This document shows positions 6,116 to 16,900 of a stretch of DNA of 64,000 bases, in pieces (positions within the stretch are counted from its first letter, which is position 1; every line of letters begins with the position of its first letter). The DNA lies in the IMG/VR virus record IMGVR_UViG_3300045988_112808. The stretch is one strand, 5' to 3'. This DNA comes from a virus. Below the pieces are notes generated by a model. That model searched no databases. It had not been told where the DNA came from and saw only the letters and a program-made list of their open reading frames with translations. Made by a program: the position numbers and the translations under genes.

Positions 6116-6646
6116 ATGAGAAGGAGATTTTTTAATGCTGCGGATAATTTCGTGGGAGGATGTTATAATAAGTTATCTAATGAGGATATAAAAAGGCTTG
6201 GAGGGAAAAGACCTTATGTATGTCAGTTTAATAAAATTCATGTACATATAGGACCTGTGTTAAAAGATCATGATTCTGATGTTAGTTACATAATGTTTAA
6301 TAGTTATTGGAATCAGGGTGGTTATGAATCTATGGTTTATAATCATAGCAATAATGGTATTTTTATATTAGGTGAAAACAAAATTGGTAACATAGAAGAT
6401 CATATACAAGATCTAACATATTGGTACGAATATGATCCAAGCATTAATGAAAATTATTGTTATTTTTATTATGAGGCTAATAACAGCGGAAATGCTATCA
6501 AGTTGAATGGTGAGTTTGGTGAGACCAGTACTGTTTTCAACATTCCCAGCTTGGAAGTCACCACTCTTCGTGATGGCAGTTTGAGTTTTCCGGAGATTTA
6601 TATAGAAGGAATTTGGGATCCGTCATTGTATAAGTCGGTTTTATAA
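6116..6646 (+). CDS. hypothetical protein, MRRRF-N-terminus family member 1 (ATG at 6116 preferred over GTG at 6107)
   Basis: ORF starts 2 nt after giant ORF stop; N-terminus MRRRF shared with 20542 and 21164 genes. Confidence 0.65.
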   Translation: MRRRFFNAADNFVGGCYNKLSNEDIKRLGGKRPYVCQFNKIHVHIGPVLKDHDSDVSYIMFNSYWNQGGYESMVYNHSNNGIFILGENKIGNIEDHIQDLTYWYEYDPSINENYCYFYYEANNSGNAIKLNGEFGETSTVFNIPSLEVTTLRDGSLSFPEIYIEGIWDPSLYKSVL

Positions 6647-6670
6647 TTAACTTTGCAAAAAAGTTAATTA
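6644..6670. promoter_or_regulatory. 10-bp AT-rich inverted repeat (TAATTAACTT/AAGTTAATTA) containing TAACTTTG -7-like promoter element
   Basis: perfect palindrome between 6107 and 6673 genes; TAnnTTTG at 6648-6655, 18 nt before ATG. Confidence 0.35.
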
Positions 6671-6672
6671 CA

Positions 6673-8928
6673 ATGGGTGTCAAATGTCAGATAGAAAAAA
6701 AGGAAAATGAAATAAAACGGGTTAAGGCTCCTAACGGGGAGCCTTCCGTTCTTTACGAAAGTGCCTTAAAATTATTAGGAAACAGCGAGCGGGCTCTTCA
6801 GGTATGGGCTAAGGCTTACACTCTTGGTTTTTTGTCGTATTACGGTCATTGGAATAACCCGGCTCCAGGGGAGATGTTTAACACCGATCCCAATGGCGAA
6901 CCTCTTTTAGAAGACGTGCTGTCGTATATGAAGCGTCAGGCTTATTTTTCCGATCCCTTAACGGCTCAGGATGTTAAGGATGTAAGAGATGTTATGATAT
7001 CCAATTCCATATATAGCATACGATCTCTTATTAATAGAGTTAGAGGCTCTTTTTATGTGGATGGTAATCTTATCCTAAATGAAGAAAATCTAAGGAGATC
7101 CGGCTTGTACAATGAGACAGAGATAAGTAGGATATTAGATAATCCTTCTGTACTTAATGAGGTCAGCTCTTTTATGAGGTTATTATTAGATTATTCCAAT
7201 AACGAACACGATCTCGGGAAAGAGTCTTACTTCACAACCGTAGAAAAACCATACGGTCCTGTTGTGTATAAAAATGGCGTCTTCAATAAATTAGGAAAGA
7301 GAGCATCATATAATCCGGCTGAAGTTTACGAGGTTATAAAAAATACAGTAGGAGGTATTAGTGTTGCTTCAGAGTTTGATGCTGCTTTCGAATCTTTATC
7401 TGATTCATATCCGGAGTTAGTTGAAAGATATCAGTCGGATAAGAGTTTTGCCTTGTCGCTGTTCAACGAATTTTCGAATATGAACATCGTTCCGGTTGTG
7501 GCTTTAGAAGATAATAATATCGTAGAAGGGAAGAGACGGTCATTGTCAAAGTTGCAAGATTATGCTTATTATAGCCCTATTAATGCTGAGTCATTACGGG
7601 CTCGTATATCAGCCTTTCTAAATAGGGTTAATGCTGATACAGAAGAAGACCTTAGAAGTATGATATGGGACGTAGAAGAGGCTTGTGTAGGTCTTGGTAT
7701 AGATATCGTAGGGGCGTCTAAAGCATACGACGGAACAGAAGAATCGCTGAATAAAATTGATAGCTTGATGTTGGATCTCGATATTTATGTAGCAAGGCAC
7801 AACGATGACACTTATGCTCCTACCTTAGCTTCTGCTATTGATAATGTTCTTGGAGATAGCAGGGATCGCCGTGTTATGTTTCTGCCAGAGTATATGGATA
7901 ATATGAATATCGTTTATATGGAATCTGACATAGATCCGGTATCGGCATTTGAAAATCATTCTCTGCTTTATCTTGGTGGAAACCTATATCATAAGGTAGA
8001 AAGAGATAATTTAGGTGATTTGTACGATATAGCTGCCGAGCTTGCCAAGCGGAGTCTAACTTATTTCCCACCTGGTATCTATCCTGAATATTGTTTTAAG
8101 GATGGTGTTTTAGATAAGCGCCGCGTGGAAAACGTAGATAGTAAGGTCCTTGCTGATTCTATTAAAAAATACATCCTGTCTTATACCGATTCTCAGAATA
8201 CGGAAGAGATGAATGCTACCAGATTGGCGTTCGGTCATCTTGTTATTCCTGAAAGTCCGTATGTTAATGAAGAACGGGAGTTTAGCCGATACATAAACAG
8301 AAAGCAGGACAAAGAGAATCCTTTACTCTTATTCGATTTATACCAATCTTATCTTGAAAATAAGCTTCATAATACGGAAGTGTATGAAGGGGCATACAAG
8401 TATCTTGATTTCAAACCGGATCATTTGCTGGGTCTTACCGTTTCAGATCCGGATACGTTAAAACAAATTGAACTATCTTTGGCAGGTAATGATCGTGAGC
8501 AGTTATTTGAGTATAGCATGAGCAGCACCGATCCTTCTTTTACAGATCTGTTCTATTTGGATTATTATGATATGTTATATGCCGGTTCTGATTTCTATCA
8601 CGATCTTTTTACAAAACATCCTAATCTCTTAAATGAGGTTCGGGGTCATAACATAACTAATCAGGATGATAATGTTATCGTAGAAGGTTTGTATGATAAT
8701 TTTATCAGAATAGGAAACATAGTGTTCACTAAAGTCGGCGAAAGTAGTTCCGGCTCTATCTACCAAAATCTGACAGGAACCGAATCGGAGGTGAAATACG
8801 ATTCTACTCAGAAGGCTAAGACGGTAGAAACCGATTACGCTCCATACCAAAACAGATCTGGCTTGACGCAAGATATGATCGTAAGCAAGTCTGAATTGGA
8901 TGATCTTAACAAATTAGAATGCAAATAA
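6673..8928 (+). CDS. hypothetical protein (751 aa)
   Basis: long ORF, no recognised motif. Confidence 0.75.
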   Translation: MGVKCQIEKKENEIKRVKAPNGEPSVLYESALKLLGNSERALQVWAKAYTLGFLSYYGHWNNPAPGEMFNTDPNGEPLLEDVLSYMKRQAYFSDPLTAQDVKDVRDVMISNSIYSIRSLINRVRGSFYVDGNLILNEENLRRSGLYNETEISRILDNPSVLNEVSSFMRLLLDYSNNEHDLGKESYFTTVEKPYGPVVYKNGVFNKLGKRASYNPAEVYEVIKNTVGGISVASEFDAAFESLSDSYPELVERYQSDKSFALSLFNEFSNMNIVPVVALEDNNIVEGKRRSLSKLQDYAYYSPINAESLRARISAFLNRVNADTEEDLRSMIWDVEEACVGLGIDIVGASKAYDGTEESLNKIDSLMLDLDIYVARHNDDTYAPTLASAIDNVLGDSRDRRVMFLPEYMDNMNIVYMESDIDPVSAFENHSLLYLGGNLYHKVERDNLGDLYDIAAELAKRSLTYFPPGIYPEYCFKDGVLDKRRVENVDSKVLADSIKKYILSYTDSQNTEEMNATRLAFGHLVIPESPYVNEEREFSRYINRKQDKENPLLLFDLYQSYLENKLHNTEVYEGAYKYLDFKPDHLLGLTVSDPDTLKQIELSLAGNDREQLFEYSMSSTDPSFTDLFYLDYYDMLYAGSDFYHDLFTKHPNLLNEVRGHNITNQDDNVIVEGLYDNFIRIGNIVFTKVGESSSGSIYQNLTGTESEVKYDSTQKAKTVETDYAPYQNRSGLTQDMIVSKSELDDLNKLECK

Positions 8929-9068
8929 TTTTTGTACACATATATAGTTTTTTTATAATTACAATTTGGGAAGTGGGGCTTGTGAAAGTCTCACTTTTCT
9001 TATATATGCACGTATATCAATAACATACAAGAAAAGTTAGATTTTCATTGTTTATGAATTATTTTTGT

Positions 9069-9076
9069 TAAGTTTG
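9069..9076 (+). promoter_or_regulatory. TAAGTTTG -7-like promoter element (Bacteroidota type)
   Basis: perfect TAnnTTTG in intergenic region upstream of 9151 gene. Confidence 0.3.
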
Positions 9077-9150
9077 CAATATTAGTTTCAGGAAGGGATT
9101 ATGGAAATAAGGAAAAAGTAAGAACCGAACGTAACTAATAACAGTAGGAA

Positions 9151-9348
9151 ATGAGAATCAGTACCATCAAACGTAACAACAGCATTCATCTTATGTATAA
9201 AAACATTATGAATGATTTAGGTCAATTAAGAACTGTAGTTTCAAAATCCTATATTTATAATCTGATACAAAATCAAACCGGATTAAGTATCAGAACTATA
9301 TCCCATGTCTTGAATCACACAAAAGAACAGGATACAGATTCTTTGTGA
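9151..9348 (+). CDS. small helix-turn-helix DNA-binding protein
   Basis: motif TGLSIRTISHVLN resembles LacI/Xre-type HTH recognition helix. Confidence 0.5.
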   Translation: MRISTIKRNNSIHLMYKNIMNDLGQLRTVVSKSYIYNLIQNQTGLSIRTISHVLNHTKEQDTDSL

Positions 9349-9431
9349 AAGGCATACATTTTCCTACATTTGTGTGTTCTTTAGTTTTTAGATTTAAGTT
9401 TTTCATGGTATTAGTTTAGATTAGTGTAGAT

Positions 9432-9470
9432 CAGGGCTCGCAGTGATGCGGGCCCTGGTTTGATTTAAAA
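9432..9470 (+). terminator. intrinsic terminator
   Basis: CAGGGCTCGC/GCGGGCCCTG 10-bp stem then TTTGATTT. Confidence 0.6.
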
Positions 9471-9635
9471 AGTATTAAAATATTTGCTATTTAAAATCCT
9501 GTTCCTATCTTTGCTCCAGAAACAATGAACAACGAGATCCCACCTCTGGTTGTTTGATGTTGAAAGATATTTTTGGCTCATTAGGGTTTGTCATAGTGGG
9601 ATCTGACATTCTCTTTTGGGCCTATTTTTTTTATC

Positions 9636-10202
9636 ATGGATAAAGTTTCTGTTTTTGAAAGTTCGGATTTTGGAGAGCTTAGAATTATTGTAGATCCAAA
9701 AGGAGATGTTTGGTTTGTGGCGTCAGATGTGGCTAAATCTCTTGGATATATAAATGCTAAAGATGCGGTAAAAAGACATGTAGATGATGATGATTCTATG
9801 CTTTTGCAAGTATCTGATAATCAATGGGGCGTAAAACGATCTATATTGAAAACCAGATATATAGATAGTATAAGAATAATTAATGAATCTGGTTTATATT
9901 CTCTTATATTATCTTCAAAATTAGAGTCTGCTAAGAGATTTAAGAAATGGGTAACATCTGAGGTTCTTCCTTCTATTCGTAAAACAGGAGAATATAAAAC
10001 AAGTTCCGGTGGAAAGGGAATTTTGGTCCCTGACTTTTCTAATCCGGCAGATGCAGCAAGAGCCTGGGCTGATCAATATGAAGCTGCTCAAAAAGCTATA
10101 GCCGAAAAGTCGCAGGCAGAGGCAGAAGCCGGCGTTCTGATGGGACGTACATGGGGTACGGTGGTGGTATTTACGACCATTACGGTATGCATGAGAAGAT
10201 GA
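9636..10202 (+). CDS. Bro-N domain protein (phage antirepressor-like)
   Basis: N-terminal Bro-N signature (FGELRIIVDPKGDVWFVASDVAKSLGY...HVDDDD). Confidence 0.75.
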   Translation: MDKVSVFESSDFGELRIIVDPKGDVWFVASDVAKSLGYINAKDAVKRHVDDDDSMLLQVSDNQWGVKRSILKTRYIDSIRIINESGLYSLILSSKLESAKRFKKWVTSEVLPSIRKTGEYKTSSGGKGILVPDFSNPADAARAWADQYEAAQKAIAEKSQAEAEAGVLMGRTWGTVVVFTTITVCMRR

Positions 10203-10408
10203 AGGAAATGGAAGAGCGAGAAAACGAGCTGGAAGAAAGGGAAAGAAGGCTCGAAGAGCGCGAACGTCGTCATGAAATGGAAGACCGGGAATACCGGAGG
10301 ATGGGTTACGAATCCTACCCGACCGATTACTATGGAGACGACAGATACTACGGTGACGGACCTCAGATGCGCAGAGGTCGCGGACGTGGCAGAGGTCGTT
10401 CTTATTGA
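10151..10408 (+). CDS. low-complexity Glu/Arg- and Tyr/Gly-rich protein with RGRGRGRG tail; overlaps Bro gene 3' end in -1 frame
   Basis: ORF with ER-repeat coiled-coil and RG repeats. Confidence 0.45.
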   Translation: MGYGGGIYDHYGMHEKMKEMEERENELEERERRLEERERRHEMEDREYRRMGYESYPTDYYGDDRYYGDGPQMRRGRGRGRGRSY

Positions 10409-10501
10409 GGAGCAGACGCAGAGGATCCAGCTTATCAGAAATATGTAGATACTTACGGCTACCATTTTTCTAATGCTCTCGCTGATGAGGCGGTAAAGAA
10501 G

Positions 10502-10795
10502 ATGGTCAACGTCGATGGATCCAAGAGGATCTGGAAGCAGCCGGAAATAAAAGATATTTTTGAAAAGTGCGGAGCGAAGAAGCCGGATAAAGCGACATGG
10601 GGCGATGTCCAATATGTCTTTGCAATGTACTATTCGGATGGTTTTCCGAAGGTCTTCAAATGTGAGAACGAGTTGGTGAAAGCTACGTTAATGTATTTGG
10701 ATGATCCGGATGCTCCCGAAGGAGTAGCCTTTATAAGATGGCTTGCCGTGCAAGATTACCTCGGCGAAAAAATAAACTGGAAGGATCTGACCTGA
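10502..10795 (+). CDS. hypothetical protein; same frame as 10151 ORF and open upstream to the TGA at 10406
   Basis: ORF track; 31 sense codons between TGA and ATG. Confidence 0.55.
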   Translation: MVNVDGSKRIWKQPEIKDIFEKCGAKKPDKATWGDVQYVFAMYYSDGFPKVFKCENELVKATLMYLDDPDAPEGVAFIRWLAVQDYLGEKINWKDLT

Positions 10796-10897
10796 GATCC
10801 AGACCCAGGTCCTTCCGGTGGTGCGGGAGCCATAGTAAAAAATATGATTCCCGCATTCCCGTTTTTCCCGTTTGGAAAAAAAGAATAAAAATGTTAT

Positions 10898-10940
10898 ACC
10901 GGTCGGCGGGCAATAGAATACCCGTGGCCGGTTTGTTTCA
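10898..10940 (+). terminator. possible terminator (imperfect GC hairpin + TTTGTTT)
   Basis: CCGGTCGGCGGG...CCCGTGGCCGG then TTTGTTTCAC. Confidence 0.3.
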
Positions 10941-10957
10941 CATAACTTTTTTTTGAC

Positions 10958-11134
10958 ATGAATATAGCACACGAATCTAAATCGAATAAAACCCCATTGT
11001 ATTTAATAGGAGAGTTGATTGGCGTACCGAATACGGTTATGGACTCAGCATTGCATGAACTGAAAGATAGAATAGACAAAGACCCTAAATATAAAGATGT
11101 TAAAAATTGGCTCGAATCTTTACCCAAGATCTGA
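10958..11134 (+). CDS. small hypothetical protein (58 aa, MNIAHESKSNK...)
   Basis: ATG-initiated ORF below track cutoff, followed by strong terminator. Confidence 0.4.
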   Translation: MNIAHESKSNKTPLYLIGELIGVPNTVMDSALHELKDRIDKDPKYKDVKNWLESLPKI

Positions 11135-11155
11135 ACCTATTTTTCCCAATACCAG

Positions 11156-11191
11156 GCCCGATGCGATTTTAACGTATCGGGTTTTTATTTT
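11156..11191 (+). terminator. intrinsic terminator
   Basis: CCCGAT-loop-ATCGGG hairpin followed by TTTTTATTTT. Confidence 0.7.
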
Positions 11192-11236
11192 AATTCATAT
11201 TGTTTTATTTTAAATCTAATTAATTCATAAATGTCG

Positions 11237-11244
11237 TACATTTG
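11237..11244 (+). promoter_or_regulatory. TACATTTG -7-like promoter element
   Basis: perfect TAnnTTTG 17 nt upstream of ATG 11262, downstream of terminator. Confidence 0.3.
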
Positions 11245-11261
11245 TTGAAAAAGTATTCTAT

Positions 11262-11489
11262 ATGGAAAATAAGGAAGATTACGTTGGTTACGAAGATCAA
11301 GAACTGTGTAACCGGTATTACAAAGAGGCCGAAGCCATGAGGCAAAAGCAGGACTGGTATCGGCTTAGGGCTGTCCCTGCTCCGGCCAAGGGAACGCCAT
11401 CGCCCGGCTGGGGTCAGCTTGGACGTGGAAATGAAGTTCGTGTCAAGTACGTTAGCATCAATTCAGGATTAGGAGGGGACAGATTATGA
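11262..11489 (+). CDS. hypothetical protein
   Basis: ORF track; ATGA overlap with next gene. Confidence 0.6.
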   Translation: MENKEDYVGYEDQELCNRYYKEAEAMRQKQDWYRLRAVPAPAKGTPSPGWGQLGRGNEVRVKYVSINSGLGGDRL

Positions 11490-13913: not shown

Positions 13914-16900
13914 ATGACATCAGCGTGTATTATTAAAAGAGATAATAAAAAGAAAGTTGTTTCTGTCTCTACCATATCAGGGGACAGGTCTATGTTATTT
14001 GATAAAATAGCATCTATTCCTCTTATGGAGAACAGGGAACGGGCCACTACTGTTTTTAAAACCGTATTTTCTAATAAGTTCTTAAAGGCTTTTGGCGACT
14101 GGAGAAAGAGAGTGCCTATCAACAAACCGGCTTATAATAAGGTAAAATCCAACATCGATCTTATTCCGGAAGCCTATAGAGAAAGGGTGTTGGATAAGGC
14201 TTCTAAGATGAGTAATCCTGTTCTTGTGTCAAAATCAGATGTACCTTATGAAATCCAAGAATCGGGCTTTGGATTCTACAGCCAAAATCTGGGTGATAAT
14301 ATTATGTTGGTGGATGCTATGGTCCCGTCAAGTATTTCCGTACCGGAAGGACCGGGAATAGACGCCGGGCAGTATCTACAAGATGCTATATCTTCGGACT
14401 TCACTCCCGTATCTATGGTACAGGATAAGGGTGTTAATTATATGGTTATAAAAGATGGTCTTAAGATATTTAGCCCAGAGGAGTTACCAGAAACAGATTC
14501 TAATCCTGTGGGTGTAACGTATCAGACCGGAGAGCCTCGTTTGTTTTTCATGAACGATCGTAGTCAATTATTTGAAGATTACGGAGAAGCTCTTCGCTCT
14601 GGCGGGAATGATATTAGAATAGGGTTCTTATCAGGCACCGTTCAAGAATCTACCGTGGATGGCGTGGAAGACATTACTTACAAAGCTGGAAAGTATGTTC
14701 TTAATAATCCCAAGTCTTTTATACCGGTCATGACCGCGTCTGCTTCTACTTCTTTATCAACAAAAGGTGGTATAATTAACTACCTTATAAAGAAAGGTCT
14801 TTTGTCCGGATCTAAGATATTCGATCCTGAAACAAGAAGCTATTATCTTACAGGAGAAGGACATACAGGACAAATTAGACTTTTCAATTCAGCCTTATCC
14901 TACACCGAGCTCCGTAATCATTTTGGTTCCGATGTTTCCATGAACGACCAAGGTATGATAACCATAAGCTCGTTGGATAATAGTAAGGTAACTATGAGGC
15001 TCGCCACCGGAGGAACGGAAAGGGTTAGCAAAGAGCAGATAAAGAACGATCTTAAGTCAGGAAGATACAATGAATTGGACGCCAAGTACGATCATTTTGA
15101 TGCGCTTGTAGTTTCATTCATATTAGAAGACAACGATCTTTATGCTGATACTAAAGCTAAGATCGTATCAGATTATAGCAGGCAGGAACGTGATCAACGA
15201 AATTCTATTGTCGAGATACTGAAAACTCTTGGCGTTAGTGTCATAGGTATGACCGACTATATAGAGAAGTACCAAACCAAATACGGGCATGAACCTTCTG
15301 CTAAGGCATTGGCGGATATTGCCAATAACGTAATAGCAGTTGGTGAAGATGCTACTTTATCTGATTTAGTAGAAGAAACAGCCCACTTCCTTGTAGAGGC
15401 ATACAGAGATCAGAATGCCGTTGAGGCTGTTCTGCAAGATGTAGAAGGTACGGAAGAGTGGAACCAGTATGCAGGTCAGTATTATAATACATACGGTAAG
15501 GTATATGAAGGAGCTGAGCTTGATAATGCTGTTAGGAGAGAAATTCTTGGAAAGATCCTCGCCATGGAGATGCAGACCGGCACAGCACAGGCGCCGGTAG
15601 AGCCCACCTCCTTCCTGGGGCGCGTCCGGCAGCTTCTCTCTGGAATCGTAAGCTGGCTTAAATCAGCTTTATCAACCCAAAGACAAGATTTGAATAACGT
15701 TATTAAAAACATTCGTGATCTTGCCATTACTGACATAGATAAAGGATTTGACACTTCTCTGTTAAAGGATAATGACTTTACATTATACTCCCTTTCTTCT
15801 ATGAACAAGAACAAGTTTCTTGAGTCTAAGATCAGATCACTAAGAAAAACATTAAGAGACTTACGTCAGATAAGCTCTGATAGGGCTGTAACTACGTCTA
15901 TGACCCTTGCTCAGCTTAAGACCATAGAAGATAAGATAAATAAGGTAGAGACCGAAATAGACAAGAATGAGATGGCGGCTGCCATGAACAGCATGATCTC
16001 CACAGCCGAAGCTCAGGTTAGATACTTAAGTAATGTGGTGAACACCATCCTTCATGGTGATACCAAAGACGGTAAGCTTCACTTCAATACCAATGATCGA
16101 AAGAACGTAGATATTATCAACAATCAGGTTCTTCCGATCATGAACGATCTTCGAGGATATATCCGTAACAGAAGTACCGAATTTGATGAACGTGAAAAGC
16201 AGGATTATACAAATAGGATCAATACCGTCATTGCCGACATCAATGGTATTCAGTCTGATATTAAATCAGTACAAGACCTTGATGAAAGTACGTTGCTTGA
16301 TAAGTTAATGAACGAACTTCATGTGCCGGCAGATAAGGTAAAGAGAGTAAAAGAATTTTTTGACAAGGTTCAACACGATGTTTCTTGGATAAGTAGGTGG
16401 TTTGGTATATTAGAGCATTCTTCCAGCCCGTTCAATAACGCTCTTGGAGCTATGATTGCCAAAGACAATTACAATGCGATGGTGAATGCCCAGCCCGCCA
16501 TATCCGACTTCCTGGCATATGCTAAAAAGCATGGTTTTAACAAATCTGAATTTGAAAAACTGCTTCAGAAAGTAGACGGCAAAACTTCCAATTACCTTCG
16601 TAGTGCTCTTGATATGGCTAAATACGATCGTAATAAGAAGCTGGCGCAGATGCGAGCGTTTGCGACTGCCATGAACATAGAGATATCAGAAGAAGAAATT
16701 GGTGATGTGGTTGACAATAACCGTAATTACGTATTTAAAAGAGAAGTAGTTGACAAGGACGGAAATACGGTTACTGAAAACGCTAAATTTAAACCATCGT
16801 CCGATAGGGTTAATACCGATATTTTTACCATCGAGCAGGAAAAGATCTATACGGAGCAGATGGAAAAGTGGGATGCTGAAAATTCAGAATTGGAATTTAG

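Follow-up and report, generated by a model that had tools for sequence, protein, structure and literature searches.

A conserved in-frame TGA within a DUF7841 gene of epsilon crAss-like phages: a candidate read-through site beside a deletion scar

We examined a group of overlapping and adjacent reading frames in a 64,000-nucleotide (nt) stretch of viral DNA (IMG/VR record IMGVR_UViG_3300045988_112808, hereafter the window), which comes from an epsilon crAss-like (Epsilonunovirus-type) phage that is very common in the human gut. Its nearest relative in GenBank is phage crAssE-Sib (OR575929, 151 kb; locus L016), which is included in the proposed genus Epsilonunovirus (Babkin et al. 2024, PMC11054128). 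Three open reading frames (ORFs) follow one another on the plus strand. ORF1 (9636..10202; 188 amino acids, aa) carries a Bro-N domain and ends in the tail ...GVLMGRTWGTVVVFTTITVCMRR*; ORF2 (10151..10408; 85 aa) starts at ATG 10151, is rich in RG, Tyr and Glu, and stops at a TGA (10406-10408); ORF3 (10502..10795; 97 aa) runs from an ATG to a TGA at 10793-10795. ORF2 lies in the -1 frame relative to ORF1 (an offset of 515, that is, 2 mod 3) and overlaps it by 52 nt, and its frame is open from 10082. Between ORF2 and ORF3, a gap of 31 codons (10409..10501, same strand, encoding YVDTYGYHFSNALADEAVK) stays open in the ORF2 frame and leads into ATG 10502; none of these codons is ATG, GTG, TTG, CTG, ATT, ATC or ATA. 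This layout had been described in an earlier note made from the sequence alone, and recomputation reproduced its coordinates, its frames and the 31 open codons. The openness of the gap proves nothing alone: at 37.5% G+C, with an estimated ~0.067 stops per codon, 31 open codons arise by chance in ~12% of cases (about 1 in 8). It is the content of the gap that stands above chance.

Our main finding, shown by comparison with homologous genes, is that ORF2, its TGA, the gap and ORF3 make up one ancestral gene, which encodes a disordered N-terminal region rich in RG, Tyr and Glu followed by an all-helical DUF7841 domain. The Pfam profile of this domain (PF25223) matches the translation of 10409..10795 with 63.1 bits over profile positions 7-112 of 114, the gathering cut-off being 25.2; applied to ORF3 alone, started at its ATG, it scores 37.2 bits over positions 28-112. 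Given the higher score obtained with the gap than without it, the domain therefore starts within the gap. The gap encodes the conserved beginning of DUF7841 (AYQKYVDTYGYHFSNALADEAVKK) and the first two short helices of the structural model, and ORF3 encodes the remainder of the domain. The ATG of ORF3 corresponds to a conserved Met inside the domain; as this Met at 10502 is equally conserved in homologs that have no interruption, it is no indication of a start.

Uninterrupted orthologs occur in the same gene order in three loci: L014 (251 aa) has CGA at the site of the TGA, L098 (268 aa) has TGG, and L106 (213 aa) has a sense codon. The possibility of three independent genes, raised in the earlier note, is rejected, since ORF2 and ORF3 form a single gene in these loci. 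In an AlphaFold2 (AF2) model of the full-length protein, residues 1-47 are disordered, residues 48-85 form a helix and residues 87-124 are again disordered; the two helices encoded by the gap lie at residues 129-138 and 144-152. The helical domain has a block-mean pLDDT (predicted local distance difference test) of about 73-92, lower toward the C terminus, and the TGA site falls in the disordered Tyr/RG linker.

The N-terminal region is represented in the window by a remnant (10151..10405, plus strand) with the conserved GYGGG-YDHYG motif, a Glu/Arg-rich helix and the disordered Tyr/RG-rich linker. Relatives mostly have an ORF2 of 122-125 aa that begins MIVYDLNSGHREYPGYDEIEDRRGGGRGRSRRSDGTYM..., with its own start 37 codons further 5'; in the window, ORF2 begins at what was ancestrally an internal Met (10151), the native start and 37 codons having been removed by the deletion described below. 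In the region 10082..10150 and its homologs, the motif DRRGGGRGRSRRSDGTYMGYGGG-YDHYG is nearly invariant between sub-clades that are otherwise ~50% identical. This suggests that the N-terminal region is more than pure low complexity, and that the motif may be a specific binding or modification site.

An RG/Tyr-rich stretch had been thought unusual for a phage, but Tyr/Arg/Glu-rich N-terminal extensions are found in DUF7841 single ORFs of other Bacteroides and crAss phages. The protein resembles the DUF7841 (PF25223)/PHROG 38431 proteins of Bacteroides, Parabacteroides and crAss-like phages in having a helical domain of ~115 aa after a variable extension. Known DUF7841 proteins are single ORFs of ~165 aa, in which the extension, often rich in Tyr, Arg and Glu, is followed by a domain start of the form ...Y(V/I)D.(Y/H)GYHF.... 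The window clade differs from them in that its extension is longer (~125 aa) and is split from the domain by a conserved TGA. No mention of DUF7841 was found in the literature searched.

At the other end of the gene, about 20 protein clusters (P0045-P0069; P0050, n = 32) have the last eight residues of ORF3 replaced by an extension of 40-60 aa. This alternative extension is read from an overlapping frame (window ORF 10738..10956). It looks like the outcome of a one-base change in the length of the A6 run at 10768..10773, in GGCGAAAAAATAAAC, near the end of ORF3, which could be a homopolymer sequencing error or real length variation.

The in-frame TGA (10406..10408, plus strand; context TAT TGA GGA GCA GAC), which lies in the disordered linker just before DUF7841, is a candidate for read-through. 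The alignment places it at the same codon in six lineages (window/crAssE-Sib, L006, L010, L099, L102 and L103) whose amino-acid identity is as low as ~50-55%, and the stop context Tyr-TGA-GG(A/G)-G(C/A)N-GAC is invariant among them. When IMG/VR was searched with a pattern that left the codon at the site free, 118 of 118 matching contigs proved to carry TGA, and the codon was TGA in all 80 of a separate set of IMG/VR loci. A neighbor-joining tree groups the TGA lineages in a single clade, inside which the CGA lineage (L014) branches next to a TGA lineage, and it leaves the TGG and sense lineages as outgroups; the ancestral residue at the site is Trp. The simplest history that would account for this pattern is one change from TGG to TGA, long retention, and one change from TGA to CGA.

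Two database proteins that show Trp at the site, P0001 (L006 293..1045) and P0033 (L099 178..918), were rejected as sense versions: their DNA reads TGA, translated under code 4 by a gene caller. True sense versions are found only in L098 (TGG), L014 (CGA) and L106. Database proteins from short contigs may use code 4 translation, so that a W in such a protein may stand for TGA.

Codon-level comparison among the TGA lineages indicates that the gap is maintained as coding sequence. The ratio of non-synonymous to synonymous substitution rates (dN/dS) in the gap is 0.095, 0.046 and 0.30, with proportions of synonymous differences (pS) of 0.4-0.7; between two sub-clades, pS is about 0.9, so that synonymous sites are saturated, and the non-synonymous proportion (pN) is about 0.2. 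ORF2 and ORF3 have dN/dS values of 0.05-0.07. Over the first 12 codons 3' of the TGA, synonymous and non-synonymous changes are about equally frequent, and the latter are conservative (E/D, K/R, Y/F, P/S); the 128 codons downstream of the TGA contain no additional stops or frameshifts. Population pN/pS over the 80 IMG/VR loci was uninformative, these loci having been chosen for 100% amino-acid identity. No start codon in the gap is conserved across lineages, the sole shared start being the domain-internal Met. Since the gap is under selection and has no conserved start, ribosomes would have to enter it in the ORF2 frame, via the TGA.

If the TGA were instead a full terminator, the locus would yield two proteins, that of ORF2 and a shorter DUF7841 protein initiated at ATG 10502 (GTG or TTG in some lineages), and the gap would be an untranslated leader. 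Gene callers and the crAssE-Sib GenBank record indeed annotate two genes, the Met at 10502 is conserved, and L102 and L103 have a GTG 13 codons past the TGA. However, this arrangement does not agree with purifying selection on the codons of the gap in the ORF2 frame, nor with the 26 bits of Pfam profile and the two model helices that the gap carries; in addition, neither a canonical nor a near-cognate start occurs within the 31 codons in the window lineage, and the Met is equally conserved where there is no interruption. We consider separate translation of two proteins unlikely. A promoter and terminator scan around 10151 and 10502 gave nothing useful.

It could also be argued that the gene is a pseudogene, the TGA being a nonsense mutation in an accessory gene on its way to being lost, and the window copy being doubly disabled by its 5' deletion. 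In favor of this, over 100 deletion alleles mark the region as deletion-prone and dispensable, the window copy is without its native start, and L099 has a 16-codon deletion within the domain. Yet the TGA has been kept across lineages whose synonymous sites are saturated, the 128 codons that follow it are intact with dN/dS of 0.05-0.3, and 118 of 118 contigs hold exactly this state. Decay of the gene is, in our estimation, quite unlikely.

Whether the TGA could be read as an ordinary sense codon depends on the code in use. The window follows the standard code: ORFs of more than 2,000 codons are unbroken under code 11, and TGA terminates 33 of its 84 likely genes (39%). ARAGORN detected no tRNA genes in the window and six in crAssE-Sib (Cys-GCA, Arg-CCT, Gln-TTG, Met, Tyr and Lys), none of them with a UCA anticodon; the program covered nearly all of crAssE-Sib, the final ~1.3 kb being covered via the record annotation only. 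The window has no Rfam matches. Reading through stop codons of one type at a time merged 5 pairs of window ORFs for TGA and 11 pairs for TAA, which is consistent with chance adjacency of same-frame neighbors, the ORF2/ORF3 gene excepted; the other neighbors that share a frame on either side of a TGA are apparently just adjacent genes. Reassignment of TGA to sense, as in a code 4-like opal suppression by a suppressor tRNA, would be in line with the opal and amber reassignment known in crAss-like phages (PMC9523058, PMC12386605), with the ancestral Trp, and with the choice of code 4 by the gene caller for short contigs. It is contradicted by the share of window genes that end in TGA, by the fact that no other gene requires a sense TGA, and by the tRNA and Rfam results, and we hold it to be very improbable.

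The earlier note had further suggested a selenocysteine-like event at the TGA. We weighed selenocysteine insertion together with a bypass, in which ribosomes would leave the Tyr codon that precedes the TGA and resume at a Tyr codon further 3'; a small hairpin with TAT-TGA in its loop and an in-frame TAT nine codons downstream might speak for such events. Selenocysteine, however, is not supported, as homologs have Trp or Arg, not Cys, at the site, and downstream of it there is no hairpin like a selenocysteine insertion sequence (SECIS) and no significant fold. As to bypass, the codons that would be skipped (G-A/E-D-A-E/D-D-P/S-A) show synonymous changes and conservation of the encoded amino acids. 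Either event is extremely improbable.

The explanation that we favor, and judge probable, has two parts: the overlap of ORF1 and ORF2 is a deletion scar, and ORF2 to ORF3 is one gene with a retained TGA, at which we infer conserved UGA read-through, or at least tolerated leakiness. The earlier note had coupled a TGA read-through to a -1 frameshift. Read-through is supported by the comparison with homologs (one gene, a conserved TGA and purifying selection downstream), and the companion frameshift is refuted by the evidence given below. Under read-through, ribosomes would mostly terminate at the UGA and release a short RG/Tyr-rich protein, the major form, and a fraction of them would continue to produce a minor long form with DUF7841. 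Near-cognate tRNA-Trp would be the simplest decoder of the UGA and would restore the ancestral residue, and the UGA itself would set a low long-to-short ratio. In the window, the gene, deprived of its own start, would begin at the internal ATG 10151. This copy may be poorly expressed or silent, its expression being uncertain because the native start was lost by the 5' deletion.

Several points weigh against read-through. No significant RNA fold that might stimulate read-through was found at the TGA (a 106-nt stretch that spans it and extends 3' gave z = +0.98), and covariation near it was little informative; the support for the putative read-through is comparative. In E. coli, a G at the +4 base makes a non-leaky context, a rule that may not apply to Bacteroidales. 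The CGA lineage indicates that the stop is not obligatory, and the many natural deletion alleles that truncate or remove the DUF7841 gene indicate that the gene is dispensable in the short term. In L102 and L103, the GTG at codon 13 after the TGA could be an independent start, and the window copy may have been silenced entirely by its 5' deletion. The TGA context may reflect a programmed signal or an ordinary leak that is merely tolerated. The more ambitious proposal is that a clade of standard-code, double-stranded DNA (dsDNA) gut phages has long kept one programmed UGA read-through site without a suppressor tRNA, yielding a short RG/Tyr-rich form and a rare DUF7841 form; we put it forward tentatively, as a possibility with slightly less than an even chance of being right.

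The other part of the explanation concerns ORF1 (9636..10202, plus strand), a truncated anti-repressor ORF that keeps the Bro-N domain (PF02498 in Pfam, 94 bits, aa 14-112, about 9675..9971) and the linker to ...AEKSQAEAE, its KilAC half being deleted. It matches the PHROG anti-repressor Ant families, and Pfam gave no match to a C-terminal KilAC/ANT domain in it. Both crAssE-Sib and P0028/P0100 retain the KilAC-coding part, and full-length anti-repressors are found in P0028, P0100 and P0110. ORF1 is collinear with the crAssE-Sib anti-repressor WOZ57305 (294 aa, BRO_N+KilAC) only through window 10126. In blastn alignments, window 6639..10126 corresponds to a crAssE-Sib region ending within the WOZ57305 gene, and window 10114..11366 to a region beginning within the ORF2-equivalent gene, the DNA from 10114 on being 96.7% identical to crAssE-Sib ORF2. 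The overlap of these alignments (10114..10126, plus strand) marks the deletion junction and consists of a 13-nt direct repeat, AGGCAGAGGCAGA, present here as a single copy. A three-way alignment with the window located the same 13-mer twice in crAssE-Sib, 2,654 bp apart: the copy in the anti-repressor reads ...SQAEAEKQQ..., and the copy in the 5' part of ORF2 reads ...GGGRGRSRRS....

The segment missing from the window relative to crAssE-Sib comprises the KilAC half, a 'spike' gene, two hypothetical genes and the first ~37 ORF2 codons (MIVYDLNSGHREYPGYDEIEDRRGGGRGRSRRSDGTY). Because its length of 2,654 bp is 2 mod 3, ORF1 and ORF2 are offset in frame and ORF1 ends in 25 odd codons. This tail (10127..10202, plus strand) is the ORF2 5' region read out of frame to the first stop; in the ORF2 frame, the same DNA reads GRGRSRRSDGTYMGYGGG..., a motif conserved in all lineages. 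The tail had been noted as non-protein-like, which is correct, as it is ORF2 DNA in the wrong frame. As shown by these alignments, the deletion joined the first 165 anti-repressor codons out of frame to ORF2 codon ~27. The overlap of Bro-N and ORF2 is what the loss of 2,654 bp between 13-nt repeats has left behind, a scar and not a recoding signal.

A programmed -1 ribosomal frameshift from Bro-N into ORF2 had been proposed in the earlier note; in its favor, the two ORFs overlap by 52 nt and the ORF2 frame is open from 10082. However, the overlap contains no slippery heptamer (X XXY YYZ), and it is confined to deletion variants: among 80 IMG/VR loci, ~72 have a full-length ORF2, and ~7 have an identical or very similar junction. 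In addition to being explained by a 13-nt microhomology deletion here, the junction differs in other genomes, where both in-frame and out-of-frame joins occur. We therefore give the frameshift hardly any credence. As for an artefact of sequencing or assembly, whether an indel at ~10140-10155 or a base error at 10406, it has in its favor only the odd look of the region. The same deletion junction recurs in independent contigs, and the identical TGA is present in the 118 IMG/VR contigs, in the GenBank genome, and in Logan and ENA assemblies of other lineages, which leaves such an artefact with a negligible probability.

Epsilonunovirus crAssE-Sib has two paralogous BRO_N+KilAC anti-repressors (PMC11054128). 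The window ORF is like one of the anti-repressors, WOZ57305, through Bro-N and the linker, and unlike the anti-repressors of this genus in that KilAC is replaced by 25 out-of-frame codons; it is a truncated remnant, ordinary in kind, and no new Bro-N architecture. This case calls for caution in that a recent deletion is enough to produce, at its junction, both an ORF overlap and an odd C-terminal tail.

As a candidate read-through gene, the TGA site would represent a known kind of event. In the coat gene of phage Q-beta, a leaky UGA decoded by tRNA-Trp gives rise to the A1 read-through protein, and we regard this as probably the closest functional analogue. Both would have an in-frame UGA between a short abundant product and a rarer, C-terminally extended one; neither would need a dedicated suppressor tRNA, and Trp, expected at the UGA, is the ancestral residue in our case. 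Q-beta is a small single-stranded RNA phage whose extension is a virion protein with a proven role, whereas the gene described here belongs to a ~150-kb dsDNA crAss-like phage with a host other than E. coli, and the DUF7841 long form is predicted from sequence.

Programmed read-through is well documented in RNA viruses and, to our knowledge, scarcely documented in tailed dsDNA phages, and work on gut phages has mainly dealt with genome-wide stop-codon reassignment. Such reassignment of TAG or TGA is the closest phenomenon within the same phage order: crAss-like and Lak phages include users of code 15 (TAG to Gln) and code 4 (TGA to Trp) (PMC9523058; PMC12386605; PMC7886860). The locus shares with these recoded phages that a gene of a gut Crassvirales-like phage is interrupted in frame by a stop where its homologs have a sense codon; unlike in them, a single codon of a single gene is involved, TGA is still a normal stop (39% of genes), and there is no suppressor tRNA. 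In cr7_1 (NC_055895), the DUF7841 homolog (L005 1375..1860) is annotated as one coding sequence with four TAG codons in frame, which is consistent with the known TAG to Gln recoding of some Suoliviridae. The paper on crAssE-Sib does not mention stop codons, suppression or deletions (PMC11054128).

With one deeply conserved TGA, an ancestral Trp and CGA in one lineage, the locus is a clean and abundant candidate for host-dependent opal leakiness in Bacteroidales. If read-through does take place, the output of the site would track the opal leakiness of the host; the site could act as a translational rheostat, or could sense suppressor tRNAs that come from the host or from recoded phages infecting the same cell. 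There is also a consequence for annotation, as the crAssE-Sib GenBank record and gene callers either split the gene into two 'hypothetical proteins' or silently give the TGA as Trp.

The accessory block that separates a 751-aa gene from the DUF7841 gene is a hot spot of deletion (window 8929..10795; L016 45129..49427; P0002-P0185). In public metagenomes, over 100 further deletion alleles connect upstream genes (lacR-like, anti-repressor, spike, h137 or h164) to ORF2/DUF7841 with scattered breakpoints, and they occur in two diverged lineages. Among them are in-frame Bro-N-DUF7841 fusions, such as P0005, which has a GCAGA microhomology at its junction; the junctions inspected at the DNA level have short microhomologies and GCAGA-type motifs. 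Microhomology-mediated deletions are known in non-essential regions of phage genomes. The window resembles these in that its junction has a short direct repeat and in that many alleles of independent origin all fall within an accessory block flanked by structural genes; the events are the same in kind, and the one thing that stands out is how many alleles public metagenomes reveal. TnpB/IS605 OrfB genes are found at varying spots of the accessory region in relatives (L010 145..1335; L100 4884..6116; L016 8986..10125 and 14190..15413), with none at the corresponding position of the window, and one deletion allele, P0030, has the N terminus of TnpB fused to DUF7841.

A last observation concerns the 5' end of the Bro-N gene. 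The anti-repressors P0006, P0013, P0014, P0071 and P0110 have a hydrophobic N-terminal extension of 26-28 aa (MLKDIFGSLGFVIVGSDILFWAYFF...). The start of this extension corresponds to an ATG at window 9557, which lies 79 nt 5' of 9636 and one base out of frame; the break in frame apparently comes from a T run of eight instead of seven (at about 9622..9629), just before the Bro-N start.

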